DNA of 64,000 nt from the IMG/VR virus record IMGVR_UViG_3300025011_000026; one strand, written 5' to 3'. The position numbers and the translations under genes are program-made. Origin of the DNA: a virus. Lineage: Duplodnaviria; Heunggongvirae; Uroviricota; Caudoviricetes. The notes under the pieces are model-generated. The model saw nothing but the letters and a program-made list of their open reading frames with translations. It had not been told where the DNA came from and ran no database searches. Below, one piece after another: positions 5,342 through 62,705 of this stretch; positions within the stretch are counted from its first letter, which is position 1; each line of letters begins with the position of its first letter.

Positions 5342-5403
5342 ATCCGAGGAAAAATTAGATTCGAGGGATTTTAGAAATAATTAAAATGAAAGAAGGAAAC
5401 AAT

Positions 5404-5970
5404 ATGGAAATATTTGATATTGAAAAACACTGGGATGATTTCAAAAACAATAAATTGGTGGTAAATTGTCCAACTCAAGAATTAGCAAATGAGTTTCATG
5501 ATTATTGTAGCAAACAAAATATTACATGGTTTGGTCACTCAATAAAAAATAATTATTGGAGTGACGAAAGTACTTGTTATAGACACCAAACATCACTTAC
5601 TTTTGCAGATATAGAACATTATGAAAATGAACATTATACAATAGTTGAATTCCAAGGACTTTCTAAAGACAAGATAAAAATTGAGATAAAAATTCCAACA
5701 GAAACATCCAAAGAAATCATTAAAGTAATCTATCACAATAAAGAAACAATTGTATTAATCAAGTCAGATGGCAGATATTATAAAGGCGTTGTCAGTTGTC
5801 ATTATCAAGATACATATGATAAAGAAATTGGATTTCAAAGAGCGTATGAAATTGCAAGAGAAAAATATAATGAATTTAAGGGATGTGAAAATAAAGTAAT
5901 CACCAAAACAAAAAATATTAATGATGATGACTTATATCCTATAAATTTGACTTATGGAGAATTGAATTGA
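5404..5970 (+). CDS. hypothetical protein
   Basis: SD AGAAGGAA then ATG 5404. The in-frame ATG at 5386 lacks an SD. Confidence 0.6.
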   Translation: MEIFDIEKHWDDFKNNKLVVNCPTQELANEFHDYCSKQNITWFGHSIKNNYWSDESTCYRHQTSLTFADIEHYENEHYTIVEFQGLSKDKIKIEIKIPTETSKEIIKVIYHNKETIVLIKSDGRYYKGVVSCHYQDTYDKEIGFQRAYEIAREKYNEFKGCENKVITKTKNINDDDLYPINLTYGELN

Positions 5971-19332: not shown

Positions 19333-19346
19333 GAAGGAGGACTATA

Positions 19347-20318
19347 ATGAACTGTAGTATTTGTAATATTGATGAAAAAGATTCACCAAAATTTTATTAT
19401 AGTGGAATTTATGGGAATAATCTATGCAATAAGCATTATCTTCAAATGAGAAGGCATGGCAAAATTACTGATGATACTCCAAATATAAAATTAAATTTAT
19501 GTGAAGTTTGTGGTCATACTGAAGGGTTAAAAAGATGTGGGTTAGACGGAGACTTCAAAGGTAAAACATTGTGTGGAAAACATTATTCTCAAATATTTGA
19601 AAAAGGAATAATATTTGATGAATTACCAACTCATAAAGATATATTAAGGGTTTGCGAAATTTGTGGGGAAGATAAATCTACTGACGTTATTTTTTGTGCT
19701 GAAACAAATCAAATGCTCTGTAGAAAACATTATAATCATATCCGTACATATGGCAATATATTGGAGAGAAGTATTCATGATAAAAATACATATGTTTTGA
19801 AAGAGGATGAATTTGGAGAATATGCAGAGATAATATTAAGGAATATAGAACACAATGAAATAGCAAGAACGACAATTGACATTGAAGAATTGGAAAGGGT
19901 ATTACAAAGAGTGTGGGGTCATAGCACATGGGGATATGCGACCAGTAAAACTCAAGAAAGTTTTACGATGTTACAAAATTTTATTTTAAATCACGTAGGA
20001 TTAATTGATCATATTGATAGAAATACATTAAATAATAGGAAATATAATTTAATGCCCTCGAATAAATCATTAAATGCATTAAATTGTGGATTAAGAAATA
20101 ACAACATAAGTGGTGTTACTGGAGTTTCTTTTAGCAAAACTGCCAACTCATGGAGATCGTATATAAATTGGGAGGGCAAAAGATTAGAATTAGGAAACAG
20201 AAAAAGCAAAGATGATGCGATTATATTAAGACTATCTAAAGAAAATGAGTTATTAGGAATATTATCACCTCAAAAACAATTATTTGAAGAATATGGGATA
20301 GAGGTGAGAATTATATGA
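19347..20318 (+). mobile_element. free-standing HNH-AP2 homing endonuclease gene
   Basis: Three tandem Zn-knuckle repeats (CxxC ... C-x-KHY-x3-R-x-G). HNH_3-like HIDRNTLNNRKYNL. AP2-like ISGVTGVSFSKTANSWRSYINWEGKRLELG. SD AAGGAGG. Its stop overlaps the Pol III alpha ATG. Confidence 0.7.
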
Positions 20319-34868: not shown

Positions 34869-35019
34869 CAATTCAGTGGGGATAAATACATAAAGCAAAG
34901 AGGTGTTCATTCTGGAACAAAACAATCAAAATACATATAACCCAGATTCTCTTGATTCTCTAGATTCTTTAGGCATATTAGGGGGAGTCAGGGCAAAACC
35001 TGCAAGAAAGGATAAAATT

Positions 35020-35970
35020 ATGACCAAAGGTAAAATAGTGAATATTGGAGATAAATTTATAAGTAATAAAGGATATGAATACGAGGTTATAAATAAATTA
35101 AAAGGAGGAAAATATGAAGTTAGATTTAAAGATACAGGATATATAGCTAAGTCTGACAAAAAAGAAGTTTTAAATGGATGCATACGAGATTGGGAGGCTC
35201 CTTATGTCGTTGGTATAGGGATAGTTGGAAAAGAAATAGATCATCCCCAAAAGCATTATTTATATGATAGATGGAGAGATATGTTAAGACGGTGTTATGA
35301 TAATAGGTGTAATAGTTATTGTACATATGGAGCAGTAGGAGTAACAGTTGATGAAAAATGGTTTAGATTTATTAATTACGTAAATGATATCGAAACTAAG
35401 GAAAATTTTGAAAAATTAAAGATAAAAAATTGTGGTTGGGAAATAGATAAAGATTTAAAAGGGAATGGTACAAAAATATATTCTAATGCAACAACTTCAA
35501 TAATAAGAGAAGAAGAAAATATTAAAGAAAGAAATATCAGGCAAGATAATCCAGCAATAAAGCTTAAAATAAAAGTCATGCAATTTACAACAGAAGGCAA
35601 TTTTATTAAAACGCATGAGAGTATTACTGAAGCTATGAAGTTCATCGGTGTTATAAATGGTAGTGGCTCATGTATAATTGATTGTTGTAAAAGTAGAGCA
35701 AAGACAGCTTATGGGTTTGCATGGATGTATGAAAAAGATTTTATAGATTTTGAATCAGCTCGTATAAAAATAATACATAGATTAGAATATATTCCAGATA
35801 AGTATCGTAAAATAGTTTTGAAAATGGACAATGACTATAACATTATAGATGAATTTAAAGGGTTAAAAAGAGCATCTGAAAGTTTAGGTGCTACTGTTGG
35901 TGCAATAGCAAATGCCATAACAAGAGGGAACAAATGTAAAGGATTTATAGTGAGATACAAGGAGGAATAA
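35020..35970 (+). mobile_element. free-standing homing endonuclease-like gene with two NUMOD-type HTH modules
   Basis: YLYDRWRDMLRRCYD ... YGAVGVTVDEKW core, common in phage HNH/AP2-type endonucleases. Two C-terminal modules (ITEAMKFIG ... KTAYGFAWMY and LKRASESLG ... KCKGFIVRY). It has its own promoter and lies immediately 5' of the topoisomerase gene. Confidence 0.55.
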
Positions 35971-46517: not shown

Positions 46518-47495
46518 TTACTCATCCATATCCCAATATTGTTTTCCTCCATCAAGATATGCTAAAGCATTAGTCAATTGAGGATGTTCACTTGATAACT
46601 TTGCTGTATTATCAAGTTTAATATTAAGATAAGGTAACAATACTTCGGCAGGGCCTCCCATGACACAAGTTTCTAATGCCTGTTGTAAATCAAATGTTTT
46701 TTCCAAAGAAGAAATTACATTATCGATATAATCTATAAGAATTTCATCTTTTGTCCTATCTAGATCATAACTTTGCTTTCGCAATGTAATCTCTGACCGT
46801 TTAAGATATTGCAATAATTCATGAGGTTTAAATCTAGTTCCATTCTTAGAATTAAAAGTTGTTGTAATTTGCTCTAGTATTTGATCAAAACCAAATTGTG
46901 TATAACTTACTTTAGAATCTAAAATTACTTCAGTATTTTCAGGATTAATATCGTCACCTTTACGCCATAATGAAGCATCTAAAGTTCCACCACCAAAATC
47001 TAAAACCAATAGGGGATATTCATATCTTCCTTTTTGAGAATCAGTTATTCCAGATTGAATGTAGCAAATAGAATCAGTTATTTCAATATTGATATTACCT
47101 CTATCATCACCGATATTAATAGTTTGTGCTTTCATAGTTTTTAATTTTTCAAGATATGCATTTGCATGTTGTTTGTAATAACCAGCCGGAGTACCAACTA
47201 CTAATTTAACTTTAATATCTTTACATTCTGGAAAACTTAAAGCAATAGAAGTTAATGTACATAAATCAAAATGTGTTGTGGTGTATTTATCTGGATTGAT
47301 ATAAATTTTTCCTTCTGGATCTCCTACAAGATGACTTAAGCCATCTTTTTTAACTAAGTAAGTATTACTTTTTAGTAGACCATCGCCCTCAGTATTAAAC
47401 TTAATTCTTGCTCTCAATACTATCCCTTTACTGGTTTTGTAGTACGAATTTCCTGCATCAAGACCTAAAATTTCTTCATCGTTCATCTCATTCAT
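46518..47495 (-). CDS. parM: ParM/StbA-type actin-like segregation ATPase
   Basis: Phosphate-1 LGLDAGNSYYKT and phosphate-2 LVLDFGGGTLDASL motifs. 325 aa. Confidence 0.8.
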   Translation of the reverse strand: MNEMNDEEILGLDAGNSYYKTSKGIVLRARIKFNTEGDGLLKSNTYLVKKDGLSHLVGDPEGKIYINPDKYTTTHFDLCTLTSIALSFPECKDIKVKLVVGTPAGYYKQHANAYLEKLKTMKAQTINIGDDRGNINIEITDSICYIQSGITDSQKGRYEYPLLVLDFGGGTLDASLWRKGDDINPENTEVILDSKVSYTQFGFDQILEQITTTFNSKNGTRFKPHELLQYLKRSEITLRKQSYDLDRTKDEILIDYIDNVISSLEKTFDLQQALETCVMGGPAEVLLPYLNIKLDNTAKLSSEHPQLTNALAYLDGGKQYWDMDE

Positions 47496-47566
47496 TTTAA
47501 ATTCCTCCTAAATAATATTTCAATGTATGCGAATAGTGTATCATTAATTGTGTACTTTTACAAGTT

Positions 47567-47659
47567 TTCAATTGTAGGTAAATATATCTACAGTTGTAAG
47601 TATATATACTTGTCTACAAATGTAAGTATGTTAATATAGACAAACTTATCTATATTAAC
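47567..47659. repeat. parC-like centromere repeats upstream of parM
   Basis: TTGTAGGTA (47573), TCTACAGTTGTAAGTAT (47587-47603) and TCTACAAATGTAAGTAT (47613-47629). Also an 11-bp inverted repeat GTTAATATAGA-N8-TCTATATTAAC (47630-47659). Confidence 0.55.
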
Positions 47660-48156
47660 ATATCTATTAATTAGAAAAGTCAGAAACTTCAGAGATGATT
47701 CTATCTTATATGATTATTTTTTAAAGATCAGGGCAAAGTAATGCTAGAGGACGAGGAAAGTTAACATATAGAAGGAGTAGTTTGATGATTAAGTCCTGAG
47801 AAATCAGAGCTTTTCTTTTTTTGTAAAGTATACTTGGGTATATTGGTAAACATTTAGTATACTCATATTTTATAATAATATTATTTATATATTAAACCAT
47901 CATACGTACTCCTATAAACACCTAATTATCCATTTTTAAACCATTAATATAAGCTATTTTCAGGATGTAAAATTTAAGAAAAGATGAATTATCATCAATC
48001 TAAGCCTTTGAAAATAATGTTTGGTGTGATTGTGTTAGTATGATTAGTTAAGGTTGTTTTAGGTTAAAGATTTCCCATTTATTACTATACATAACGTACA
48101 AACAATACTCAATAAGATTAAACATATCAACACCACACAAAGGAGGTCACAAAGCA

Positions 48157-48408
48157 TTGATAACTGACAAACTCAACAAATCAGAGATTAAAGTTCTTCA
48201 AGTTCTTCAGGAATCAAATATCACTAATGATATGAATGCTATGAAAATATCAACATTGTCAGAAAAAACTGGATTAAGTTATTTCATTGTTAGAAATATT
48301 ATCAAAGCATTTTATATTGCTAATATTTGTAAGAAAGGGAGGAGAGAGGGGAATGGAGAGACATATTATTTGAGCAAAGGAATTGATGATATTGAAACAA
48401 AAACCTGA
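48157..48408 (+). CDS. small winged-helix/HTH regulator, first gene of the T4SS-like operon
   Basis: SD AAAGGAGG then TTG. ISTLSEKTGLSYFIVRNIIKAF looks like a helix-turn-helix. Confidence 0.5.
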   Translation: MITDKLNKSEIKVLQVLQESNITNDMNAMKISTLSEKTGLSYFIVRNIIKAFYIANICKKGRREGNGETYYLSKGIDDIETKT

Positions 48409-48616
48409 ATGTAGACTTATTTGTAATCAAAATGACGATGACAATTTTAATTCTGTTTTTACTATTACTGATGAAGTTGCAAAATGTTTAATCAGAGCAA
48501 AAAGAGATTATTCTGCTAAAAGTTATATTGATCAAATTTGTGATATTGAATCTGTTGAAGAAGTTTTGAGATTGAGTTTAGGTTATGTTAATTTTATTTT
48601 TGTATATGAATTTTAA
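48386..48616 (+). CDS. hypothetical protein
   Basis: It overlaps the previous gene's end, with AAAGGA upstream. Confidence 0.45.
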   Translation: MILKQKPECRLICNQNDDDNFNSVFTITDEVAKCLIRAKRDYSAKSYIDQICDIESVEEVLRLSLGYVNFIFVYEF

Positions 48617-48630
48617 GGAGGAGGATGATT

Positions 48631-48894
48631 ATGAAGAAACCTGAAATTGGATTAGTTAAGAAGAAATTTTTTGATTATTTTAAATATCCAGAAGCAAAAA
48701 AGGTTGTTATTCCCACTCGATGTCCTAATTTAAAGTGTAGGAGCAAGAATATTATCGGCAGAGGATTAGTTATTGGAATGGCTTATGTAAGTCTTAAAAC
48801 TATGGATGTTGATGAATTAGGTGATGATTTTGAGATTTTGGATAAGGATGGGATAAAGTTTAGATGTTTTGATTGTGGTGAAGATTTTGAGTAA
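48631..48894 (+). CDS. hypothetical zinc-ribbon protein
   Basis: SD AAGGAGGAGG then ATG. CPNLKC ... CFDC. Confidence 0.55.
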   Translation: MKKPEIGLVKKKFFDYFKYPEAKKVVIPTRCPNLKCRSKNIIGRGLVIGMAYVSLKTMDVDELGDDFEILDKDGIKFRCFDCGEDFE

Positions 48895-48923
48895 ATTTTA
48901 ATGAATTTAAAGGAGTGGTAAAT

Positions 48924-49130
48924 ATGGCAAAAGTAAAAGTAATTAAATCAAAAAATCTAATCAAAATCGAAGAGAAAACTGATGCAGAATTGTATGAAGA
49001 CTTTACTAGAAGAATTAATGACTTATATACTGTAAGCAAATATTATGAGGAAAATAATCTTAAAATGCCTAAATGGATTGAGAATAAGATTATTAAGATG
49101 GGCGAGGTTATTGGGCAATTGGGATTGTGA
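48924..49130 (+). CDS. hypothetical protein
   Basis: SD AAAGGAGTGG then ATG 48924. Confidence 0.55.
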   Translation: MAKVKVIKSKNLIKIEEKTDAELYEDFTRRINDLYTVSKYYEENNLKMPKWIENKIIKMGEVIGQLGL

Positions 49131-49142
49131 GGAGTGGTCAAT

Positions 49143-49448
49143 ATGAATTACAGACTTCCAAACGAAAAGAAAATGAGAAATTATTTAGATCAATTTAGTT
49201 ACAGGAAAGTTACTGAAAAAGAATGGGAAGATTGTATTGAGAATTTTGTTGGTTTCGCAGAGTATATTGAAGAAGAAATGGAAGGCAAACAATTAATTCA
49301 AGAAGGAGCATCTACTGAAGTAGATATTGGAAAAGATAGTTATGAAGTATGGATTATTTTCAATTGGGTTTATGAACATGGAGTTAAAATTGTGCTGATT
49401 GATTTTGATTATAGTTATTCATTAGGAATTGTGAATGGAGAGTATTAA
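49143..49448 (+). CDS. hypothetical acidic protein
   Basis: SD GAGGAGTGG then ATG 49143. Confidence 0.55.
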   Translation: MNYRLPNEKKMRNYLDQFSYRKVTEKEWEDCIENFVGFAEYIEEEMEGKQLIQEGASTEVDIGKDSYEVWIIFNWVYEHGVKIVLIDFDYSYSLGIVNGEY

Positions 49449-49465
49449 TTAAAAGGAGGATTATT

Positions 49466-49657
49466 GTGAAAACATACAACATTCTAAAACCTAAAAATGA
49501 CTTTTATGAAAAGGTAAAAAATCGTCTTCATGGTAGAACTTGTACTTGTGATTTGTGTAAAACTAAAAGTCCTCTTTTAACCAATAAATCAATTGTCACA
49601 AAAGATACTGAATCCCAGTTCATTCATGTTTTAAATTATTGCCCTAATTGTCAGTAA
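49466..49657 (+). CDS. hypothetical zinc-ribbon protein
   Basis: SD AAAGGAGGA then GTG. CTCDLC ... CPNC. Confidence 0.5.
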   Translation: MKTYNILKPKNDFYEKVKNRLHGRTCTCDLCKTKSPLLTNKSIVTKDTESQFIHVLNYCPNCQ

Positions 49658-49784
49658 CGAATGCCAATTAGAATTGATTTTATTGAAAATACTCTTTCTT
49701 TTGCTTTTCCTTCTTGGGATGATAAAGATGGTATTTATCCTAAAAGAAGAGCAGATTAAATTAGTTTAAAAGGAGGAATTAATT

Positions 49785-50024
49785 ATGCTAATCAGTGGGT
49801 TTTCTATTAACAAAGGCAAAGAAAAATGTTTTTCATATATGGTTAAACCATCTACAATTGTTTCATTATTATTAATAGGAAGTTTTAGTGTAAATTTATG
49901 GCATATTCTTACATCTTCTGGATTAGAGTTATCAGGTGGCAAAGACATTTATTCATTTTTAGATAGTGTGAAACTTGACGGACAGAATATTAATTATGAA
50001 TATGTTTTTATGAAATTTAGGTAA
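49785..50024 (+). CDS. hypothetical membrane-associated protein
   Basis: SD AAAGGAGGAA then ATG. Central hydrophobic stretch TIVSLLLIGSFSVNLW. Confidence 0.5.
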   Translation: MLISGFSINKGKEKCFSYMVKPSTIVSLLLIGSFSVNLWHILTSSGLELSGGKDIYSFLDSVKLDGQNINYEYVFMKFR

Positions 50025-50060
50025 ATTGTGAAGGATGAGATTAAGGAGGGTTGATTAATT

Positions 50061-50273
50061 ATGAAAATTCGCGTATCAATACTGATTAATCAAGGTCGTA
50101 AAATTCATGACATTATCAATCATTTGGAATTTGAGAATACTGATGATTTTGTTGATTATAAACATGATTTTTATGACAATCTTTTTGACAGAGGATGGAG
50201 AAGAAATGGTATGAGTGCTAATCAATGTTATAAGGGGAATTTGACTTTGACTCCTTATTTTATTAGGGAATGA
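50061..50273 (+). CDS. hypothetical protein
   Basis: SD AAGGAGGG then ATG. Confidence 0.55.
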   Translation: MKIRVSILINQGRKIHDIINHLEFENTDDFVDYKHDFYDNLFDRGWRRNGMSANQCYKGNLTLTPYFIRE

Positions 50274-50279
50274 TTGATT

Positions 50280-50837
50280 ATGAAAAAACCAAACAAAAAA
50301 TTATTATTCTCTCTTGTATTATTAACATTATTATCAATACCACATCCTGTATCTGCCAAAGGAGAATTAACTACTAAACAAGCAAAAAGCATTTTAAACA
50401 TCATTATTGATAAAACTTATACAATTCTCACATATTCGTCTTCTCCTTGGATTTATCCTGTAGATGGAATTGTCACAAGTCCTTATGGGCCAAGAGAATC
50501 TTCGATAGATGGATTTCATCATGGGTTAGACATCTCTGCAGTAGAAAACACTCAAGTTCATTGTTCTAAATCAGGGATCGTAGTTAAAGCAGAATTTAAT
50601 GAAATGGTTGGAAATGTTGTGTGCATTAATCATTCAGATGGATTTCAAACTATGTATGCACACAACAATAAATTATTAGTCAAAGTTGGAGATAATGTAA
50701 ATCAAAATGATGTTATTGCATTGTCCGGTAATACTGGATTATTGTCAAGAGGAGCGCATGTACATTTTGAGATTCGTACCAATAATGGAACAAATTCATT
50801 AAATCCAATGAATTATTTACCTGCTAAACAAAAATAA
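50280..50837 (+). CDS. secreted M23 (LytM-type) peptidoglycan metallopeptidase
   Basis: Signal peptide MKKPNKKLLFSLVLLTLLSIPHPVSA. HxxxD motif GFHHGLDI and HxH motif AHVHFEI. Confidence 0.85.
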   Translation: MKKPNKKLLFSLVLLTLLSIPHPVSAKGELTTKQAKSILNIIIDKTYTILTYSSSPWIYPVDGIVTSPYGPRESSIDGFHHGLDISAVENTQVHCSKSGIVVKAEFNEMVGNVVCINHSDGFQTMYAHNNKLLVKVGDNVNQNDVIALSGNTGLLSRGAHVHFEIRTNNGTNSLNPMNYLPAKQK

Positions 50838-50855
50838 ACCCCTCAAAATGAGGGG
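50825..50855 (-). terminator. terminator for the minus-strand peptide gene
   Basis: 7-bp stem CCCCTCA/TGAGGGG, followed on the minus strand by TTTATTTTTGTTT. Confidence 0.5.
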
Positions 50856-50881
50856 ATGAAGTAGGATCATATTGATATTCA

Positions 50882-50983
50882 TTATTGAATTAATCTTCCT
50901 AATTGTTGTGCAATATCAACTAATTGATATGATCCATACCCTATTAATCCTACTCCAATTGCTGTTCCAAATATTAAAAACAT
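50882..50983 (-). CDS. 33-aa hydrophobic glycine-zipper peptide, antisense-oriented inside the T4SS operon
   Basis: Minus-strand SD AAAGGAG, 9 nt, then ATG. Translation MFLIFGTAIGVGLIGYGSYQLVDIAQQLGRLIQ. It has its own terminator. Confidence 0.4.
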   Translation of the reverse strand: MFLIFGTAIGVGLIGYGSYQLVDIAQQLGRLIQ

Positions 50984-51227
50984 AAATTTTCACTCCTTTA
51001 AATCATATTTCATTAACTGTATTATTACCAAACTATATGTCGAATATACATGAATTGATGTAAATTTTAAGACAAGAACCCTATATTAGCCACCTATACC
51101 AAGGATAATACACCCTAAATCCTACAGTCCTTTAATATCAATGGTCTTAGACTTGAAAATGTGGGGTCTTCTTATATAAGGAGGCAGATTTGCCGACTGT
51201 TTTAATTTTCAAAGGAGGTTGTTTACA

Positions 51228-51479
51228 TTGAATGAATTTTTAAGTTGGTCAACAAAGATTTGTTTGGCTATGACTGCTCTTGGTGGAGGATTGGCTATGC
51301 TCATGATCGTCTGGTCTGGGGTCATGGACATCATCGGAAATGGGCAATGGAAAGCTCAAGCAAAAGAACTGAAAGAAAGTGTAATTCGTGGATGTATCAC
51401 TATAGTCGTTGGGCCTTGGATCATAAAAATCTTGTGGAGTATATTAAAAGGAATCTTTCCAACACTTCCTACATTTTAA
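51228..51479 (+). CDS. VirB2/TrbC-like two-TM protein
   Basis: SD AAAGGAGG, then in-frame TTG 51228 (TTG 51219 abuts the SD). Two hydrophobic helices flank a polar loop, and it lies just before the VirB6-like gene. Confidence 0.35.
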   Translation: MNEFLSWSTKICLAMTALGGGLAMLMIVWSGVMDIIGNGQWKAQAKELKESVIRGCITIVVGPWIIKILWSILKGIFPTLPTF

Positions 51480-51509
51480 TTATTACAATTATAAAGGGGA
51501 TGATCATAA

Positions 51510-52544
51510 ATGCTTACAGTTGGAGAAGTAGGAGATGCAATTATTAACTTTTTTATTAAACCACCATCTCCTGAAAATGTTGATATAATACATGGGGCAT
51601 TATTCAATGCTCCTTCTCCAGAAACAGTAGAGAGTGTCAATAATGCTCTATTTAATGCACCTACACAACAAGATATTACAACAGTCAATGGAAGATTAGA
51701 GCATTTTATTACTGACTCATTAGTACAAAACTTTGCACAATTATTTCTTCATACACCAAATGTATTGGCAGAAAACCCAACCATATTATCTTTATATACT
51801 TTCTTTTTAAAAATAATTATTTCATTTTCATTTGCAGGAATAGTATATTTTGGAATTATGCAAATCATGAATAAGGGTAGTAAACACAATACAACGGAAT
51901 ACATTGTTAAGATAGCTCAATCAATGGTAATTATAAATATAGCAATTATAGCATTGCCATTGCTAATTGAAGCAACAAACAAATTTACTATAGCAATTCT
52001 TTCTCTTGGTGGATCTGAAGCACAAATGGTAAAAGCATTAAGTCCTCAATATGGATTAGGATTAATCATATTCACATTAATTTTTGCATTAATTCTAATT
52101 AATCTAATATGGTTCTATTTCATGAGAATGATTTCTATTATGTTTCTAATTGCAACTGCTCCTATATTCTTCTTTTTATGGTTATTCCCTAAATATCAAA
52201 ATATGAGACAGGTTTGGATTGATGAATTATTAGATAATCTAATTGCACCAATTATACATGCAATAATTATGGTTATTTGGTTAGGGTTTGAATCATCAGT
52301 ATCAAAATCAAATCATGGAGCACTTTATCATGTAATGCTTTCCATAGCTGCTGGTTCATTTATGTTAAAAGCACCTTCTTATGTCCAACAATGGATTTCT
52401 CATGGTCATCAATCACCAAATCCTATACAAATGTTTAAAGAGATAAAGTATGGGTTAAGTCCTAGAAAACTTATCGGTTATGGAGGATTTGGAAGAATGG
52501 GAGGAAGTATGTTTAGAGGAAGAGGGACTACAAAAAGGAGGTAA
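51510..52544 (+). CDS. VirB6/TrbL-like polytopic membrane protein
   Basis: At least 5 long hydrophobic segments. N-terminal three 16-aa repeats (PSPENVDIIHGALFNA / PSPETVESVNNALFNA / PTQQDITTVNGRLEHF). Gly/Arg-rich tail. Confidence 0.5.
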   Translation: MLTVGEVGDAIINFFIKPPSPENVDIIHGALFNAPSPETVESVNNALFNAPTQQDITTVNGRLEHFITDSLVQNFAQLFLHTPNVLAENPTILSLYTFFLKIIISFSFAGIVYFGIMQIMNKGSKHNTTEYIVKIAQSMVIINIAIIALPLLIEATNKFTIAILSLGGSEAQMVKALSPQYGLGLIIFTLIFALILINLIWFYFMRMISIMFLIATAPIFFFLWLFPKYQNMRQVWIDELLDNLIAPIIHAIIMVIWLGFESSVSKSNHGALYHVMLSIAAGSFMLKAPSYVQQWISHGHQSPNPIQMFKEIKYGLSPRKLIGYGGFGRMGGSMFRGRGTTKRR

Positions 52545-52548
52545 TTCA

Positions 52549-52896
52549 ATGTTTAATAATGAGATGTTTGAAACTAATCAAATCATTGAAATGAAAGACG
52601 AAATATTTTATGGACTTACAGGAAAACAAACTATTTATTTATTAGGTGGAATAGTGCTTAGTTTATCTGTATTTAATACTGCATTACCTATTATTGCAAA
52701 ACTATTCATTCTACCAAATATAGGTATTCCTACTGCAATTTTAACTAAAACTGATGTAGATCAAGGGATAGTTTCTTTCTTTAAATTCAAATGGAGAGGA
52801 GTGACAAAACAAAATGTTACAATACAATCTTTACCCAAAAGCAAATTATCTTTTAGTAACAAAAGAAGAGCAGACGCTACTTCGATCAAAGTTTAA
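52549..52896 (+). CDS. PrgI/VirB3-like small membrane protein
   Basis: SD AAGGAGG then ATG 52549. KDEIFYGLTGKQTIYLLGGIVLSLSVF matches the conserved (F)GLTxRQ-TM start of PrgI-family proteins. It lies directly upstream of the VirB4-like ATPase. Confidence 0.45.
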   Translation: MFNNEMFETNQIIEMKDEIFYGLTGKQTIYLLGGIVLSLSVFNTALPIIAKLFILPNIGIPTAILTKTDVDQGIVSFFKFKWRGVTKQNVTIQSLPKSKLSFSNKRRADATSIKV

Positions 52897-54322
52897 GTAT
52901 TTATTAAATTCTCTAAATGAACCATTTAAGATTATTTGTAAAACTGACTTAAATCAATTAAACAAAGAAATACAAGTTAATGAGTCAAGTTATTCTCTTA
53001 CTACTAATGCAAATATTTACGAAAATTTGCGTAATTCTGGAATAGACTATACTCAAAATCAATTACTAATTGCAAGTAATATTCAAATAAAGGAGTATAG
53101 AAAGTACATTGGTGTTACTGAAAACAATGTAAAATATTTTGCTAAATCAATCAAGGTTATCCAATTTCCACAAATGCTTTCTACTGGATTCATAAACAAC
53201 TTAATGATTTCTGACACTGAAATTGCTCTTACAATCTTTCCATTGCCACAAGAAGAGGCTGTAAAGGCAGTAAAAAAGAGAATTGATACTACTGAAGCAA
53301 ATGCTAATTGGAAGGCCGTAAAGAACCCTAATCAAGAGTTTTATGTAGAAGATGAAATTGTATCAAAACTTCAAAAGACTATGGTTGATCTTATGGGTAA
53401 TGAGGAAAAACTTTGTATGGTTGGATTATATATTTTAATTAAAGGACAAACACTTGAACAATTAGAAACAAAATCAAAACAAATATCAATGCTTTTAGAT
53501 GGAATGCAAATCAGATTCAAATTCGCTAATTGTGAACATTTTAATTGTTTCAAGAATTTTAGATCATATAAAGAAATTGACTATGTAAAGGAGTTAAAAG
53601 TGTTTTTAACAAGTGTGATTAGTAATTTTTATCCATTTGTTAGATATGTATCAGGTGATGGAATTATAATTGGATATGATTATCAAAATTATCAATTAAT
53701 TAAGATTAATTTTGCAGAGCAATTCAATCTGTCATGGTTCATTTTTGGAATTTCAGGAAGTGGAAAATCATTTGCTGTGAAATCAATTGTCAAGAAAATA
53801 TCTAGTCATAAGAAGATTTATATTCTTGATATTACTGGTGAATACGCCAAATTAAAATCAAAGAATATTATCATTATATCTAAGGATTTTGAGAAATTCC
53901 TACTGTACACCGATTTTAAAGATTGCATGATTGTAATTGATGAAGCATGGGATATTTTAAAAACTGATGCAGTTATTAAAAGAGTGGTAGCAATTGCCAA
54001 AGGATACAGAAAACGAGGAGTAGGTGTTTTAGTCTGCACACAAAACATTGCTGATACAAGTAAAGAGGATATTGAATTAATTATTAAAAACTGTGCTAAT
54101 ACTTTAATTCTTCACTTAACCTCCTTAGAACTTCAACATATTAGTGAATACATGAATATACCATCTCATATTGTCGATTATCTTTCTAGGATTGAAAAAG
54201 GACAAGGATGGATGACCATAGGAACAAAGAAATATGCTTTTAGCCCCATATTTAGTAATGAAGAATATTTATTATTTAATACCAATTATGAGGAAATGAA
54301 AGGGGTTGGTTATAATGGGTGA
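52814..54322 (+). CDS. VirB4-like T4SS ATPase (short form)
   Basis: Walker A FGISGSGKSF, Walker B MIVIDEAW. SD GGAGAGGAG 11 nt upstream. It overlaps the PrgI-like gene by 83 nt. Confidence 0.65.
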   Translation: MLQYNLYPKANYLLVTKEEQTLLRSKFKYLLNSLNEPFKIICKTDLNQLNKEIQVNESSYSLTTNANIYENLRNSGIDYTQNQLLIASNIQIKEYRKYIGVTENNVKYFAKSIKVIQFPQMLSTGFINNLMISDTEIALTIFPLPQEEAVKAVKKRIDTTEANANWKAVKNPNQEFYVEDEIVSKLQKTMVDLMGNEEKLCMVGLYILIKGQTLEQLETKSKQISMLLDGMQIRFKFANCEHFNCFKNFRSYKEIDYVKELKVFLTSVISNFYPFVRYVSGDGIIIGYDYQNYQLIKINFAEQFNLSWFIFGISGSGKSFAVKSIVKKISSHKKIYILDITGEYAKLKSKNIIIISKDFEKFLLYTDFKDCMIVIDEAWDILKTDAVIKRVVAIAKGYRKRGVGVLVCTQNIADTSKEDIELIIKNCANTLILHLTSLELQHISEYMNIPSHIVDYLSRIEKGQGWMTIGTKKYAFSPIFSNEEYLLFNTNYEEMKGVGYNG

Positions 54323-56021
54323 AAAGATAAGCAAGATTAAAGATATGGCAATTAAATCAGGTAAATATTCTGCTTTGTATACTGGACAATTTATTTTAGG
54401 TGGATTAGGCTATGCTGTTCAAATTGCTTCAAATGGAATATTAGGAATGAGCATTCCAGATTATAAACTGCCTAATTTGAAGTTTGGAGATGATAAAACT
54501 TCATTAGGAGATAGGGTAGTGTTAACTCCTAGTAAATTTCTTCTTAAAGGAAATGGCATAGTAATTGGCAAAGACTATAATACAAAAAATGTACTTACTT
54601 ATCCTGTAGATCATTTTGACGATCTTATGAAAAATTTTATTTATGTTGGGTCTCCTGGAAGTGGAAAATCAAATTTAGCAGAAAATATAGCAGTTCAAAT
54701 ATCTAAAATTAATAATTTACCTAATTTTAATACAGCAGGATTTTGTGTGATAGATGTAGCTGATGGAGCATTGATTGATAATATTTTAATGTCTATTCCT
54801 GAAAACAGATTGGAAGATGTAGTTTTATTAGATTTCTCTAATAAAGATTTTCTGCCAGGAATTAACCTTCTAGAATTCGATGAAAAAGTAGAGAAACAAT
54901 TCCCACACTTTATTCATGCTGAAATAATCTCATTCTTTAAAAAACGATTTGGTGAACAAATTGGTTATGCTAGTGAGGATCTTTTATCAAACTCGTTGAA
55001 CGCAATTCTGAAACAAACTGACTATCCTAAAACACTATTAGGAATTATCAAAATGCTAACTGAAGTAGAATATCGTGAACAAATAGTTGCATCTTTGAGA
55101 AAAAATAAAAGGAATGCTTCAGTAGTCAGATATTGGGATAGATTTGAAGCTCAATCTCCTTCTGTTAAAAGAGATATGGTTAAGCCTTTATTAAATAAAG
55201 TTGGAAATTTAACCAATAATGATTATTTAAAATCTATTATATGTCAAAACAAATCTACCATAGATTTTAGAAAAATTATGGATAGTGGCAAAATTCTTCT
55301 TATAAAAGCACCAAAGGTTGCTGTCGGAAAAGTTAATATAGAAATATTGATACCATTGATTCTTTCAAAGTTTTGGATCGCTGCTTTATCAAGATTTGAT
55401 ATTACTAATACTAATTTACGCCGTCCATTCTTTGCCTTTCTTGATGAACCTCAAATGTATCTATCAAATGAAGCAGGAATAGAAGAAATGTTGACGGAAA
55501 TGAGAAAGTATAGATTTGGACTTCATTTTTTCTTTCAATCCCCTGAACAAACGCAACTTCAATCAGTTATCAAAATGATGTTAGAAGTCAATCCTCAAAT
55601 TATATCATTTGCTATGGGTAGAGGTGGAGCACAAACATTATTTAGAGAATTTGAAACTGGTGATGAAGAAAAAGACATGTCAAATAGATATGCAATTCTT
55701 AATCTCCCAAAACATCACGCACTTTGTAGATTTTTATATAAAAGCGAAAAGAGTGTATCTATTATTAAATGCGATCCTCCAATTAAACCTTTGCGTAAAA
55801 AAGTACCTGATATTATTACTGAAAACAGTCAAATGTATTTACGTTCTGTTGATGAAATTATGGAAGAAATTCTTGAATCGGATTATATCCCTGAACCAGA
55901 TTTTAGTTTAGGGGAGGTGAGCAATAATGAACAGCAAAGATTTAATGTTGAAAAAATTGATTGTGGGCCAAAAATACGCCCATTTAACGGCGAGAGATTT
56001 AGAGATAATAAGAAGTATTAG
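54315..56021 (+). CDS. VirD4/TraG-like type IV coupling protein
   Basis: N-terminal hydrophobic segment. Walker A VGSPGSGKSN, Walker B FAFLDEPQ. ATG 54315 has better SD spacing than TTG 54306. Confidence 0.6.
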   Translation: MGEKISKIKDMAIKSGKYSALYTGQFILGGLGYAVQIASNGILGMSIPDYKLPNLKFGDDKTSLGDRVVLTPSKFLLKGNGIVIGKDYNTKNVLTYPVDHFDDLMKNFIYVGSPGSGKSNLAENIAVQISKINNLPNFNTAGFCVIDVADGALIDNILMSIPENRLEDVVLLDFSNKDFLPGINLLEFDEKVEKQFPHFIHAEIISFFKKRFGEQIGYASEDLLSNSLNAILKQTDYPKTLLGIIKMLTEVEYREQIVASLRKNKRNASVVRYWDRFEAQSPSVKRDMVKPLLNKVGNLTNNDYLKSIICQNKSTIDFRKIMDSGKILLIKAPKVAVGKVNIEILIPLILSKFWIAALSRFDITNTNLRRPFFAFLDEPQMYLSNEAGIEEMLTEMRKYRFGLHFFFQSPEQTQLQSVIKMMLEVNPQIISFAMGRGGAQTLFREFETGDEEKDMSNRYAILNLPKHHALCRFLYKSEKSVSIIKCDPPIKPLRKKVPDIITENSQMYLRSVDEIMEEILESDYIPEPDFSLGEVSNNEQQRFNVEKIDCGPKIRPFNGERFRDNKKY

Positions 56022-56691
56022 GGATTTTAAAATATTCTCCAGAACTCAAATTCAAATAATGTTCTTTCAATCCAAACAAAGTTTAACTATTTGCAATCGA
56101 AGGCTGGCTGAAATTGAAAGATTAGAATTTATAAAAAGGACACCAATAGCATTAAATGGGGAATCATTAGTCACTGCGGGAAAATTGCTTTGTCAAATTG
56201 GTGGGGTATATATATCAAAATTACCATCCGACTATACGCATCAACTATTAATAAATGAAATTTATGCTTTATTGTTCAGAGAGCAGAATTTAAATAGAAT
56301 TACTATCAAGCAATATAAACCAGAATTTGTTTACAGATACAAAGATAGAGAAAATGGCAAACAATATATTTTTAGGTCTGATATATTAGTTGTATTAACT
56401 AAGAATAATCAAGATACCACTTTGCTATTCGAAATTGATGCCGGAACAGAAAGCAAGAAACAATTAAGAGAAAAGATTGCTGTTTATGAAAAAGTGTCTC
56501 AAAAAGTGAAAGGGTTTCCTCGATTATTCTGGTTGACTAATACATTGGGATATCGAAAATTAACAAATTTAGATAAACAAATTAATATTGCTCAAGTAGA
56601 AGAATTGAGAAACGACTTTTATATTTTTACTCGTTACCCAGATATGAAGAAGATTAAATTAATTCCTGATATTGTGGTCTGGAAAATATAA
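55927..56691 (+). CDS. replication-relaxation (Replic_Relax) family protein, candidate relaxase
   Basis: LTARDLEIIRSIRDFKIFSRTQIQIMFFQSKQSLTICNRRLAEIERLEFIKR is the typical N-terminal wHTH pattern of the family. Strong SD GGGGAGGTG. It overlaps the coupling-protein gene by 95 nt. Confidence 0.6.
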   Translation: MNSKDLMLKKLIVGQKYAHLTARDLEIIRSIRDFKIFSRTQIQIMFFQSKQSLTICNRRLAEIERLEFIKRTPIALNGESLVTAGKLLCQIGGVYISKLPSDYTHQLLINEIYALLFREQNLNRITIKQYKPEFVYRYKDRENGKQYIFRSDILVVLTKNNQDTTLLFEIDAGTESKKQLREKIAVYEKVSQKVKGFPRLFWLTNTLGYRKLTNLDKQINIAQVEELRNDFYIFTRYPDMKKIKLIPDIVVWKI

Positions 56692-57006: not shown

Positions 57007-58557
57007 ATGAAAATTCTATTTTCTGATAAAGTTAAGGATATTAAATTGGAAGGAGATATACATGATATGAGTAGGAAAAGTAAGGAGAGATTTACACAGA
57101 TGGATATTGGTTTGGTTAATGCAGTAAAGGAAGAGGTGATGAACGGAATGAGTGATAATCACTCAGAAGAAGATCAAGAAATGATTCAGGAGATGGAAAG
57201 CATCACTCGTGAAGAAACTGCCGTTGGTTATGAGAGTGCAAATAGTTTTGAAGAGAATAGTAAAAGTGGAGATGTTATTAATTTGGGTGAGAAATCTATG
57301 CCAGCATTTGGTAGTTTAAGTGAAAAGACTAAAATAGAAGAGTCAAATGGGGATGATAAAGAGCAAATGTCAACTGAAGAATTTAATGAAACTAGAAATG
57401 AAGTTTTAGATAGTAAGAGTGAGTTCGAAAAGAAAAAGGAATTAAGAGAAGCAAATAAATTGAAACGAGATATGAGAAGTAAATTAAAGCAATTAGACAG
57501 TGAAAATGATGATAAATCATGGGAACTAAACAATGTCCAAATCGTCTTGCGTGATGGTAAGCCTTATAAATATTTGGTATCACTATCTTGTATGCAGTTG
57601 GCTGAGTGGTATATCTCTAAAAAGCTGATTTACGATTTTGGCGTACAAAGAGGCAGTAAAACCAATAAAAAAGGCGAGGAAGTACCTATACTTTTTCTAA
57701 AACATTGCAATGATATCAAAACTGCAATTTTAGATGGGTCAATTCACGGGGGAACATTGAGTCTAAATTTGCCTACTGACAATAATACACAACTTTTTTA
57801 TGACGAAGACAATATGACTTTAAGTTCTGACGTTCCCTTAACCATAAATGATGGTTTTCACCGCATATATGCAAGTTATTTGTGGTATAAGGAATTTGTT
57901 AAACCAAATAGTACATGTAAAAGTCCTGAAACGTTCTATTTTCCAGCCAATATTGAGCATATTAGTAGACAAGCGAGTTGTGATTTATTCAAAGAATATG
58001 CGGTTATGGGGAAATCTATTAGTAAGAACAGGATTAGTGTCCATAATGTATTTGATAAAAATTATGAAATCACACAGAGGGTTGCAAAATCATCTCAACT
58101 TCGTGGACGTATAGAAATGATTTCTAATTCAATTAAAAGAAGTAGTCCTTGCATTTTTACTTATGGTACAATATTAAATGGAGTATCTGAATTTAAGGTT
58201 ATTACTCAGGGGAAAGAAGAAGAAGTTGGTAATTTCATCATTGAGTTCTTAAATGAATTAATCGAATTATTTCCTAATCTAATGGGTCATGTTGATTCAG
58301 AAACAAGAGCGATAGAAAAACAAAAGAGTTTTGTACTCGAAAAAATGTTTCAAAATTCTTATTTTGTGTTAGCTAGTCAATTACAAGGTAAAGATGATTG
58401 GAAGAGTAGATTGGCTAAATTGACACAAAACAATTTCCTATCAAGAAGTAATCCAATGTGGGGCTTTTGCCTTAGAGAAGGCGAAAAAATAGTGAATTCT
58501 TCAAAGGTGCAAAAAACAATTACTGAGAAAATTATTGACTATGTGATGGCAAACTAA
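57007..58557 (+). CDS. ParB/Srx-fold DGQHR-type (DndB-like) protein with acidic disordered N-terminus
   Basis: FGVQRG ... LTINDGFHRIYASYLW resembles the QR ... DGQHR signature of DndB/DGQHR-domain proteins. The first ~170 aa are Glu/Asp/Ser/Lys-rich. Confidence 0.4.
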   Translation: MKILFSDKVKDIKLEGDIHDMSRKSKERFTQMDIGLVNAVKEEVMNGMSDNHSEEDQEMIQEMESITREETAVGYESANSFEENSKSGDVINLGEKSMPAFGSLSEKTKIEESNGDDKEQMSTEEFNETRNEVLDSKSEFEKKKELREANKLKRDMRSKLKQLDSENDDKSWELNNVQIVLRDGKPYKYLVSLSCMQLAEWYISKKLIYDFGVQRGSKTNKKGEEVPILFLKHCNDIKTAILDGSIHGGTLSLNLPTDNNTQLFYDEDNMTLSSDVPLTINDGFHRIYASYLWYKEFVKPNSTCKSPETFYFPANIEHISRQASCDLFKEYAVMGKSISKNRISVHNVFDKNYEITQRVAKSSQLRGRIEMISNSIKRSSPCIFTYGTILNGVSEFKVITQGKEEEVGNFIIEFLNELIELFPNLMGHVDSETRAIEKQKSFVLEKMFQNSYFVLASQLQGKDDWKSRLAKLTQNNFLSRSNPMWGFCLREGEKIVNSSKVQKTITEKIIDYVMAN

Positions 58558-58620: not shown

Positions 58621-60339
58621 CTACTTATAAATTCCCCAAACCAATTTTTCACCAGTTTCAGGATGTTTACCAGCCGATTTTTGATTGCCACTGCAACATC
58701 TAGATATGCCATTCGCAGACATATTATATTTTATTGAAGCATCCAACATACTCTCAAAAATTTCATTTGTTGTTATACAAATTACCTTTTTCTTACAAGA
58801 ATCATAATTTTCTGCTTTAGCATTTTTTAAACTATATTCTATTTCATCTTCTGTTTTCAAAAGATATTTTTCATAATACATCCAAACCAATGGCTCACCA
58901 GTTATCGACTTACCTGCTGATTTATGCTTACCTTTACAACATGCAGATATATTTGGTCTTATTGATTCTCTGCCATTGAATGAAGCTTCATATATAGAAT
59001 CAAATATTTCTCCAGTTGTAATGCAAATCACTTTCTCGCATATTTCTTCTTTTGGGTTATAAGAACACCATCCTAATTCTGTTCCTTTTTTAAGATAACT
59101 CCTTATCGCACTACTACTCAAATTTAAATTTTCCCCTATTTTAACTGTGCTTTTAATTCCTTCATTCCATAAACTACATGCTGTTTTAACTAAATTTCTA
59201 CACCCTGCTTCTTGCACTCTTAACCAATCTATATCTTCTTCAGTAAAATTTAATAACTCTGGCAATTTACTATTCATAATACTGTCCCTTATCCACCCTA
59301 TTTCAGACGTTCTGCAATCAATTATTAAATAATTTTTAATTTTATTACTCCTAGCCAACCATTCCTTATCAAAATCATTGATTTGTATATCATCTAATGA
59401 ATCCCACTTACTTTTCGTTTCTTCGTAGTGTTGAATTCCTTGACACTCTATCACACCATTTATTTTATTTATGTATATGTCATATCTATAATTTTCACAC
59501 CATTTAAAAGTAGTTTTTGATAATTGAATGATAAATGTTTCGTGTAATTGTTCTAAAACATTTATCATAACCTTTTCGGGGATGCTCACACCATCTCCAC
59601 ATCTGTTGCAACCGAAACCGTGATTTACTAAGTTAGAAATTTTAATCATTTTTTCATAACCACAATCAGGACATTTAGTTAATACATATTCACCTGACCC
59701 AAAAGAATATTTATGTGCATCATTTATATTCACAAAGAAATGTGTTAAATGAGGATGTGTGACAAAAATAGTATTGCACATATCACAATCTAGACTACCC
59801 TTTTGTCCTCCTGTAAAAGAACTTATATGTTTTTGTTCAGGTTTGTGTTCTGGATTATCTAAACAATTAAACCAATATCCTTTTTTATCTATGCCTTGTG
59901 AAGCAAAACTTACATCTTTGGGAGATAATTTATTACCATCTTTATCAACATTCAGTTCGCAATTCCAACGATTAATTATTATATCTGCTTCATTTTTATT
60001 TTTATTATCATAGCACCATTTGTAAAAAGATGTCCATTGTTTATCTCCTGCGTTTGCACATCTTAAACAATAATATTTTCCATCTTCTCTAACTTGTGAA
60101 GTATAGTCAGACCACCTTATATTTTCTAATAATTTTCCACATCCATCACATTCAATATTTACAAATACTCTGGCCTTATCTTGTAGATCCTCTACTTTAA
60201 CTTTTATTATTGCACCTCGTATATATTTTTCTTCGCCATTCTTATTTATGTATTTTGGTATCTCATATCCTTTTGCTTCATACCATTTAATATTTTTACT
60301 ACCTAACCCAACCTCAGCCTCTTTTGTTATCAATCCCAT
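58621..60339 (-). mobile_element. Zn-ribbon / PD-(D/E)XK-like / NUMOD-like endonuclease gene (free-standing homing-endonuclease-like)
   Basis: Several treble-clef-like Cys pairs (CDGC ... CLRC, CDMC, CPDC ... CNRC). Putative nuclease core YRYDIYINKINGVIECQGIQHY. Two C-terminal repeats VICITTxEIF(D/E)S ... CC(K/S)G ... KSAGK ... LVW. Confidence 0.45.
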
Positions 60340-61964: not shown

Positions 61965-62705
61965 TTAAGCAAGTTCTAATTTTTTGCAAGCATATCCCAT
62001 TTTAATGATTTGCTTAATTACTTCTTCAGATTTAGATTCAAGAACACGAACAGATAGATAAATATCTTTATCTGTTTTTATTGTTGTGTCTGTTTTTACA
62101 TCTGCCACTTTAAATACAACTCCTTCCTTATAAACTATTCCAAAATAAATACAAACACTTTTAGCAATATTCACAGCAATTTGTTGTCTAATATTTGCAT
62201 CTGCTAATTTAGCATTATCATTTTTATTATCTAAAAACGCAGTTTCTAATAATACTGCTGGCATATTTGTGTCCCTAATTACTGCAAAATTTGATACTTT
62301 AATTCCTCTATTATAGAATAATTGTCCCATCATAGGATTTAAAATTTTAGCAAATCTTTCTGCATTTCCATTCAATCCAAATACATGACAAGTTGTGCCA
62401 AATGCCTGAGAATTAAAGGCATCACAATGGACAGAAAGAAATAAATCTGTTTTATTTGAATTTGCTATTTGACATCTTGTATTTAATGAAGCATTAACTG
62501 AAGATCCATTTCCATTTACAGTCCCTCCATCACGAGTCATAATAACTTTAACTCCATTTAACTCAATTAATATTTTTGCACGTTTGCAAATATCTAAAAC
62601 TATATCTTCTTCATGAAGACCAAAGCCTGAACATCCTGTATCAGCATTTGTAATTGACTGATGTCCTGCGTCTAATGTTATTGAATAACTCATTTTTACC
62701 TTCAT
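61965..62705 (-). CDS. N-acetylmuramoyl-L-alanine amidase endolysin (Amidase_3)
   Basis: LDAGH, LSVHCDAF and VLLETAFLDN, in the order of the Amidase_3 Zn-binding/catalytic motifs. An extra ~70-aa C-terminal domain follows. Confidence 0.8.
   Translation of the reverse strand: MKVKMSYSITLDAGHQSITNADTGCSGFGLHEEDIVLDICKRAKILIELNGVKVIMTRDGGTVNGNGSSVNASLNTRCQIANSNKTDLFLSVHCDAFNSQAFGTTCHVFGLNGNAERFAKILNPMMGQLFYNRGIKVSNFAVIRDTNMPAVLLETAFLDNKNDNAKLADANIRQQIAVNIAKSVCIYFGIVYKEGVVFKVADVKTDTTIKTDKDIYLSVRVLESKSEEVIKQIIKMGYACKKLELA

Follow-up and report, generated by a model that had tools for sequence, protein, structure and literature searches.

A conserved 33-amino-acid predicted membrane-peptide gene divergent from a type IV secretion-like operon on a phage-like element

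Introduction

What might a 33-amino-acid (aa) peptide do when it is encoded on the opposite strand at the head of an operon for a type IV secretion system (T4SS)-like apparatus? The question is raised by a 64,000-nucleotide stretch of DNA (IMG/VR virus record IMGVR_UViG_3300025011_000026, Caudoviricetes; hereafter, the window), in which a small minus-strand open reading frame (ORF) lies between the plus-strand gene of an M23 peptidase and the plus-strand gene of a VirB2-like pilin. An initial annotation, made from the letters of the window, described the product as a glycine-zipper membrane peptide, likened it to type I toxins such as Fst, and mentioned entry exclusion and a bacteriocin-like role as alternatives. 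Microproteins of this size are routinely missed in annotation, and the control of transfer in phage-plasmid hybrids, which combine a T4SS-like operon and partition genes in 140 to 280 kb, is little known. The comparative evidence available for this locus is unusually clean.

Results

Comparative evidence for a conserved gene

The exact peptide is on record in 44 collection blocks of metagenome contigs, mostly from Rifle groundwater. Because a look-up of the exact peptide selects by identity and is hence biased, relatives were recovered via the neighboring genes instead, using the VirB6-like protein (71-93% identity) and the VirB4-like protein (74-92% identity). Every contig fetched in this way has a minus-strand ORF of 33, 34, or 36 aa at the same place and in the same orientation. 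A hand-built degenerate DNA pattern, scanned against 241 million metagenome records, identified 15 loci, all of which belong to the same peptide family and have identical synteny wherever the sequence extends. The gene is single copy: each of 38 loci has exactly one, and the pattern matched exactly once in each of 39 test sequences and in each of the 15 metagenome loci. Together, the neighbor-based and pattern-based recoveries yielded 11 distinct peptide variants, and conservation of the peptide in related elements, which the initial annotation had proposed to look for, is thus found.

These comparisons indicate that the small antisense ORF is a genuine conserved gene under purifying selection. 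The annotated frame is the only stop-free frame in 12 of 12 diverged loci, and variable columns are unevenly distributed among the first, second, and third codon positions (19, 13, and 30 of 33, respectively; chi-square test, P = 7e-5). Insertions and deletions (3 and 9 nucleotides [nt]) are in frame. The mean ratio of nonsynonymous to synonymous differences (pN/pS) is 0.46 for the small gene, compared with 0.18 for the pilin gene and 0.21 for the VirB6 gene; it is below 1 in distant pairs (Fisher test, P = 0.015-0.024), and five of the five differences between the two closest lineages are synonymous. The Shine-Dalgarno sequence (SD) is kept in all relatives, and the ATG and the stop codon are conserved as well. 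Across nine aligned variants, residues M1, F2, G10, G12, L13, Y16, and Q33 are invariant, the tail and a GxGLxxY(G) core are conserved, and residues 3 to 9 are variable.

An ORF this short in an AT-rich genome (28.6% GC), where many ORFs of such size arise by chance, could itself be fortuitous or could mark a purely RNA-level element without a functional peptide. We consider this reading to have a negligible probability, since the single open frame in all 12 relatives, the third-position bias, the pN/pS below 1, the in-frame indels, and the conserved ATG, SD, and stop all speak against it; the comparative data effectively refute a chance ORF.

Predicted structure and database affiliation of the peptide

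Residues 1 to 19 of the peptide, hydrophobic and glycine-rich (mean Kyte-Doolittle hydropathy, 1.5), make up the predicted membrane-spanning segment. Residues 20 to 33 constitute an amphipathic, almost uncharged tail (hydrophobic moment, 0.55-0.69) with two heptads, in which Q occupies position g, L position a, and I or L position d. The tail has exactly one conserved K or R, four residues from the C terminus, and one or two D or E within the last 14 residues; the net charge of the peptide is 0 or -1. AlphaFold2 predicts one continuous helix from residue 2 to residue 32 (predicted local distance difference test score [pLDDT], 87). Because the sole conserved K or R is C-terminal, the positive-inside rule points to an N-out/C-in topology. 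No Trp occurs in any of the 11 variants, and no family member has a cysteine, hence there is no lipobox or lipoprotein signal. The term glycine zipper turned out to be loosely right: a single GxxxG is present in 6 of the 11 variants, and the full patterns, (G/A/S)xxxGxxxG or GxxxGxxx(G/S/T), are present in none of the 11.

In Pfam (E ≤ 0.1), no family was found for the peptide, the only match being a sub-threshold one to COX14, and searches of NCBIfam, PHROG, and PADLOC gave no match. Two insignificant matches were obtained among PDB sequences, both to de novo coiled coils (E = 0.96 and 5.4). A phmmer search of 1.84 billion representatives returned one true relative; its three other matches, which were dismissed, are repeat proteins of low complexity (CHAT, SpaA repeats, and a transmembrane [TM]-repeat protein). 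Derivation of the peptide from the pilin as a truncated paralogue was likewise rejected (hhalign probability, 1.8%). Searches of the literature turned up neither the element nor the peptide.

Signals of a separate transcription unit

The factual statements of the initial annotation about the ORF hold. Positions 50882 to 50983 of the minus strand translate as given (MFLIFGTAIGVGLIGYGSYQLVDIAQQLGRLIQ), the ATG (50983-50981) is preceded by the SD AAGGAG (50998-50993) at 9 nt, and a hairpin that acts as a terminator on the minus strand only, CCCCTCAttttGAGGGG (50855-50839), is followed by TTTATTTTTG, with its U-tract at 50838-50829. The sigma-70-like promoter consists of a -35 element TTAAAA (51070-51065), a 16-nt spacer, and a -10 element TATATT (51048-51043). 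This -10 lies in ATGTATATTCGACA (minus strand), which is the best-conserved intergenic block in the alignment of relatives and is unique in the window; in L028-type relatives (L numbers are our locus handles) the promoter reads TTGATT-16-TATAAT. The transcription start is inferred to lie near 51036. The unit, which had been placed at 50825-51060, extends further, as the promoter reaches 51070. Predicted SD accessibility spans 0.06 to 0.84 across relatives, and given this wide variation there is no conserved structure that sequesters the SD.

The terminator hairpin is the sole terminator-like site in 50-52 kb, and a similar hairpin and T-run are found 3′ of the small ORF in most relatives. On the plus strand the hairpin runs into ATGAAG, and because no T run follows it there, it should not stop plus-strand transcription. 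The U-tract is encoded by the final codons (KQK-stop) of the convergent M23 gene, whose stop codon occupies 50835-50837. Because the U-tract lies within M23 codons, the transcripts of the small gene and of the M23 gene must overlap at their 3′ ends.

In the window and in similar relatives, a segment of the 3′ untranslated region (UTR) can fold back onto codons 9 to 21 of the gene, with arms at 50864-50872 and 50927-50935 (9 base pairs [bp]) and at 50857-50867 and 50947-50957 (10 of 11). The fold-back of L028 is a perfect 12-nt inverted repeat (5361-5372 versus 5416-5427), and one compensatory change was observed in L022, where UCA to GCA (the S18A codon) is paired with GAUCC to GCUCC. The duplex is just 1 to 2 standard deviations better than shuffles, and it was not found in L011, L012, L016, and L021. 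With such modest z-scores, and with the duplex missing from distant relatives, a family-wide regulatory helix is not sustained.

Fixed position beside the pilin gene

In the window, 244 nt separate the small gene from the pilin gene, and ~530 nt separate it from the VirB6-like gene. As the initial annotation had stated, it occupies the gap between the M23 gene and the VirB2-like gene and is the only minus-strand unit in its block, being the sole opposite-strand gene from the ParM region to the DndB gene (gene calls on the identical contig L004). The gap, reported as 380 bp, measures 390 nt, because the M23 stop ends at 50837 and the pilin gene starts at 51228. That start is a TTG; another TTG at 51219 falls inside the pilin gene's own SD (GGAGG).

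Across relatives, the small gene and the pilin gene are separated by 229 to 286 nt and are divergent throughout. Wherever enough sequence is available, a locus reads upstream gene (+), peptide (-), control region, pilin (+), and VirB6 (+), and the peptide and the VirB6-like gene are found on the same IMG/VR contigs in eight of eight cases. No family member was detected outside a pilin/T4SS context by the phmmer search, the metagenome pattern scan, and the synteny check. The upstream side is more variable, with at least three contexts: M23 directly, M23 plus an extra gene of 61 to 65 aa, and no M23. The M23 gene, whose product is predicted to be secreted and is a candidate VirB1-type wall hydrolase, is absent beside the small gene in L011, L012, L016, L021, and L054; by this distribution, it is not an obligatory partner of the small gene.

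The extra gene between the M23 gene and the small gene (L028, 5136-5333 [+]; L015, 1184-1369 [+]) encodes two TM segments, the second of which (GALGVLMFGFGAYW) resembles the peptide core GxGVxxxG(Y/F)G(S/A)Y. The L015 copy and the small gene are convergent across a 10-nt gap without a hairpin.

Conserved blocks of the control region

An alignment of relatives delineates several conserved blocks between the small gene and the pilin gene (Table 1). Each block tested is unique in the window, and the idea of a repeated phage promoter was rejected on that ground. At the place equivalent to CTTCTTATATAAGGAG, L012 has a perfect 12-nt inverted repeat (5645-5671). RNAalifold found no consensus RNA structure on the plus strand of the intergenic region, and a structured RNA was rejected accordingly. 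Because no RNA structure was detected, we read the blocks as DNA-level sites. They are candidates for protein-binding DNA, namely, an operator or promoter for the T4SS operon or possibly an origin of transfer (oriT). Such sites suggest separate regulation of the T4SS operon, next to the near-consensus promoter that the small gene has for itself.

Table 1. Features of the small gene, its neighbors, and the control region in the window
Feature	Position	Strand	Description or basis
M23 peptidase gene, convergent neighbor	50274..50837	+	Peptidase_M23, E = 6e-28
Intrinsic terminator of small gene	50829..50855	-	7-bp GC-rich hairpin and U-tract
3′ UTR segment complementary to the small gene's own codons	50857..50872	-	Fold-back in window-like relatives
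Small gene, coding sequence	50882..50983	-	33 aa and TAA stop; product MFLIFGTAIGVGLIGYGSYQLVDIAQQLGRLIQ
5′ UTR, ~53 nt, inferred	50984..51036	-	Sequence; includes SD
Sigma-70-like promoter of small gene	51043..51070	-	Promoter scan and conserved block
Control-region conserved blocks	51071..51183	.	Alignment of 12-13 relatives
Block GACAAGAACCCTATATTA	51071-51088
CCTATA direct repeats	51080-85 and 51093-98		13 nt apart
Block ATACACCCTAAATCCTACA	51108-51126
Block TTGAAA	51153-58
Palindrome-like CTTCTTATATAAGGAG	51168-51183
Pilin gene, divergent partner	51228..51479	+	83-aa VirB2-like T4SS pilin; first gene of module 51228-56691

The T4SS-like module and its host element

From the pilin gene on, the module encodes the pilin (PF18895-like), a VirB6/TrbL-like protein, a PrgI/VirB3-like protein, a VirB4-like ATPase, a second ATPase of 571 aa, and Replic_Relax. 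The Pfam matches to T4SS_pilin (7.5e-4), TrbL (0.016), and PrgI (3.8e-4) are all below the family cut-offs yet stand in canonical order; they are accompanied by DUF87 (2e-9), AAA_10, and P-loop_TraG and by Replic_Relax (1.6e-11), which is above its family cut-off. TrbL_3 was recorded in relatives. Judged by gene content and order, the operon matches a T4SS of the monoderm/Patescibacteria type, in which the assignment of the coupling protein is uncertain. Patescibacteria and monoderm T4SS clusters (MPF-FATA-like, with VirB2-like pilins) comprise a PF18895 pilin, VirB6, PrgI/VirB3, and VirB4, as described in a survey (PMC12102498). The description of the locus as a genuine gene for a small predicted membrane peptide with its own transcription signals, on a mobile element and at the head of a T4SS-like operon, is supported. 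The nearest VirB4 relatives outside the clade are 21-24% identical. Scans of 185,579 species-representative genomes with VirB6-like and VirB4 alignments found no relatives, and no DNA match was found among PLSDB plasmids. The VirB4 start is uncertain (52480-52896), related contigs being called alternately with a 431-aa or a 502-aa product. Directly after the relaxase-like gene, most relatives encode a 516-aa DndB-domain protein (57007-58557) that matches phrog_5732 and no PADLOC defense model.

We call the element phage-like on the basis of its IMG/VR listing, its phage-type replication module, and its endolysin. The phage-type genes of the window include DnaB, primase, DNA polymerase III (Pol III) alpha, ribonucleotide reductase (RNR), and a thymidylate-synthase/guanylate-kinase region; the endolysin gene lies at 61965-62705, and a ParM-like partition gene is also present. 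Three HNH or homing-endonuclease-like ORFs (19311-20318, 34903-35970, and 58621-60339) are interspersed among replication, gyrase, and DndB-like genes. The related contigs are classed by IMG/VR as viral genomes of 59 to 230 kb, with other contigs of up to 277 kb, from groundwater metagenomes. A complete-looking conjugation module and ParM-like partition genes thus occur together (46518-56691, and in L001-L054) in a phage-like genome of 140 to 280 kb, and the element may be a conjugative phage-plasmid. This phage-borne T4SS module is possibly a more notable object than the peptide.

Discussion

A possible accessory of the T4SS-like apparatus

With a confidence that falls somewhat short of even, we favor the reading that the peptide is an independently transcribed single-pass membrane helix that serves the T4SS-like apparatus as an exclusion, gating, or assembly factor. 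In favor of a link to the T4SS, the small gene stays with the pilin side, at 229 to 286 nt, whatever the upstream context, and the block with its promoter is better conserved than the rest of the intergenic region. There is precedent in entry-exclusion factors, which reside in the inner membrane, are encoded within transfer regions, and have VirB6 homologues as partners on the donor side (PMC12282955). Of the functions that the initial annotation had brought up, entry exclusion would fit the strict T4SS linkage better than the toxin comparison does.

We conjecture that the small gene's own promoter would drive peptide synthesis independently of the T4SS operon. The 19 N-terminal residues would cross the membrane with the N terminus out, the C terminus in, and the single conserved K or R facing the cytoplasm, and the amphipathic Q-L-x-x-I heptad tail would mediate self-association or docking, so that the peptide could bind the VirB6-like channel protein or the pilin and block, gate, or chaperone it. 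In the most concrete version, self-exclusion, redundant transfer into cells already carrying the element would be prevented. While the upstream operon is active, convergent plus-strand transcription across the small gene, with no plus-strand terminator to halt it, would reduce expression of that gene. A peptide that gated or excluded the apparatus would offer a minimal handle on the regulation of VirB6-type channels.

Several observations weigh against this proposal. An identical peptide occurs with different VirB6 alleles, which are 86% and 93% identical to that of the window (L002 versus L001), a hint that the two are not strictly coinherited. The linkage could reflect block inheritance and not function, because the relatives form one tight clade, the next VirB4 being 21-24% identical. 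Nothing analogous to the small gene occupies its position in the one distant monoderm T4SS locus that was examined, and no homology links the peptide to the pilin (hhalign probability, 1.8%). Known exclusion proteins have ~60 to 150 aa, compared with 33 aa here. Moreover, some of them, such as TrbK of RP4 and a pKM101 protein, are lipoproteins (PMC12282955), and the peptide is devoid of cysteine.

A bolder version, which we regard as decidedly improbable, is that the peptide is the smallest known exclusion or gating factor and one arm of a switch, built from a divergent promoter and convergent transcription, by which a giant phage-plasmid of an uncultivated, possibly Patescibacteria-like host would either deploy its T4SS or not. 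If true, a 33-aa microprotein would be tied to the control of a phage-borne, conjugation-like machine.

Alternative explanations

The main rival to an accessory of the T4SS is a type I-like toxin or addiction module, a possibility that we hold to be unlikely. The peptide would oligomerize in the membrane and depolarize or permeabilize it, read-through of the convergent operon rather than a dedicated small RNA (sRNA) would supply the antisense, and loss of the element or shutdown of the operon would kill the cell. Type I toxins are described as shorter than 70 aa, with a TM region and a C terminus that is polar or aromatic, and a 33-aa peptide with a TM helix and a polar tail fits this general description; the Ldr/Fst signature, in which the TM helix precedes a conserved Trp and then clustered charged residues, is absent here, where the tail is near-neutral (PMC2887945). 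The heptad-like tail could drive oligomerization, and the gene, which lies close to partition genes on a mobile element, is equipped with a promoter and a terminator of its own; however, searches of Pfam, NCBIfam, PHROG, and PADLOC yielded no family for the peptide, and the gene is single-copy and never tandem, occurring in every relative at a fixed place by the T4SS rather than patchily. With respect to RNA, the gene converges on M23 with a hairpin common to both, and because there is no plus-strand terminator between the M23 gene and the pilin gene, the read-through that the initial annotation envisaged as a source of antisense RNA is structurally possible. A discrete antisense unit with promoter and terminator was not found, nor was a conserved intergenic RNA structure, and no toxin or antitoxin RNA family of Rfam matched 50500-51500 at E ≤ 1. 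The 3′ UTR fold-back onto the coding region in several lineages, with its one compensatory change, would suit a toxin mRNA, but it is missing from the more distant relatives, and the SD is not consistently sequestered. The mean pS of the small gene (0.53) is just slightly below the values of its neighbors (VirB6, 0.57; pilin, 0.64), and because they are so close, overlapping RNA appears to impose no strong extra constraint. The resemblance to Fst therefore extends to size and helix-then-polar layout and does not extend to the Trp and charged tail, family profiles, Rfam, a discrete sRNA, or tandem copies. By these sequence and RNA criteria an identity as an Fst-type toxin fails, and the probability stated above is for a toxin in the wider, type I-like sense. 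If the peptide were a toxin, it would represent a new type I-like family with operon read-through, instead of an sRNA, as the antidote.

Phage genomes often contain small TM ORFs that have promoters of their own, and the peptide could be a phage membrane moron unrelated to the T4SS, that is, a superinfection-exclusion or abortive-infection peptide or a holin- or antiholin-like lysis-timing factor. We think this rather improbable. The element is phage-like (IMG/VR uncultivated viral genomes, phage-type replication module, endolysin), and an M23 wall hydrolase adjoins the gene in many relatives; on the other hand, the gene is kept where M23 is missing and was never encountered away from the pilin operon, the endolysin and its neighboring genes are 11 kb away (60.8-62.7 kb), and there is no PHROG or PADLOC match. 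At 33 aa, the peptide would be far smaller than any known holin. A holin of an M23 lysis cassette was specifically rejected, given the persistence of the gene without M23 and the location of the endolysin elsewhere. It is very improbable, in our estimation, that the peptide is the precursor of a secreted or processed signaling peptide (Phr-, arbitrium-, or pheromone-like) that regulates transfer, with the hydrophobic N terminus as export signal and the conserved small-x-small GYG as cleavage site. The location in the control region of a transfer operon and the conserved G/S/T-Y-G/S at positions 15 to 17, which in the alignment appears to fit the -3/-1 rule, agree with such a precursor. Its n-region, however, is not positively charged, the sole basic residue is C-terminal and predicts an N-out/C-in anchor and not export of the tail, no receptor-type regulator was recognized among neighboring small ORFs, and the entire tail is conserved rather than merely a short mature peptide. 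The bacteriocin-like peptide of the initial annotation is unlikely as well, because the net charge is near neutral (0 or -1), a leader and cysteines are both absent, and no transporter or immunity family was found among the scanned neighbors (most ORFs of ≥55 aa in 45-58.6 kb).

Comparison with known systems

Single-pass helices of ~30 aa that attach to a larger membrane machine and modulate it, and that are often encoded near it, include MgtR, MgtS, AcrZ, KdpF, and the eukaryotic sarcolipin and phospholamban. These regulatory micro-membrane proteins act on transporters and not on secretion systems, and the peptide has no homology to them.

With Fst of the par locus of pAD1, the peptide has in common a length of 33 aa, a hydrophobic N-terminal helix, and a polar tail, and its gene has in common the location on a mobile element, an own promoter and terminator, and convergent transcription over a shared hairpin. 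Direct repeats like those of RNA I/RNA II and a discrete antisense RNA were not found at the locus studied here. Relative to Fst and Ldr (PMC2887945), the peptide lacks the Trp and charged cluster and any profile match, its tail is near-neutral and Q-rich, and its gene is strictly syntenic with a T4SS operon.

The operon itself has the same order and content as the Patescibacteria and monoderm T4SS clusters of the survey (PMC12102498), in which a search for terms returned no such small divergent peptide gene. In contrast to those clusters, the one examined here resides on a phage-like element and includes a relaxase-like gene.

Entry-exclusion proteins, such as TrbK of RP4, TraS of F, Eex of SXT/R391, and YddJ of ICEBs1, share no sequence similarity with the peptide. 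The small gene is divergent and has its own promoter, and its product is without cysteine or lipobox. Like the peptide, for which a membrane location is predicted, these proteins are small inner-membrane proteins of transfer regions. Their targets are channel proteins of the VirB6 family (PMC12282955), and the small gene, which has a VirB6-like gene ~530 nt away, shows more rapid evolution than the structural genes. On the strength of the database searches, the peptide belongs to no known family and is best regarded as a new family within a known general kind, the small accessory membrane peptides of mobile elements.

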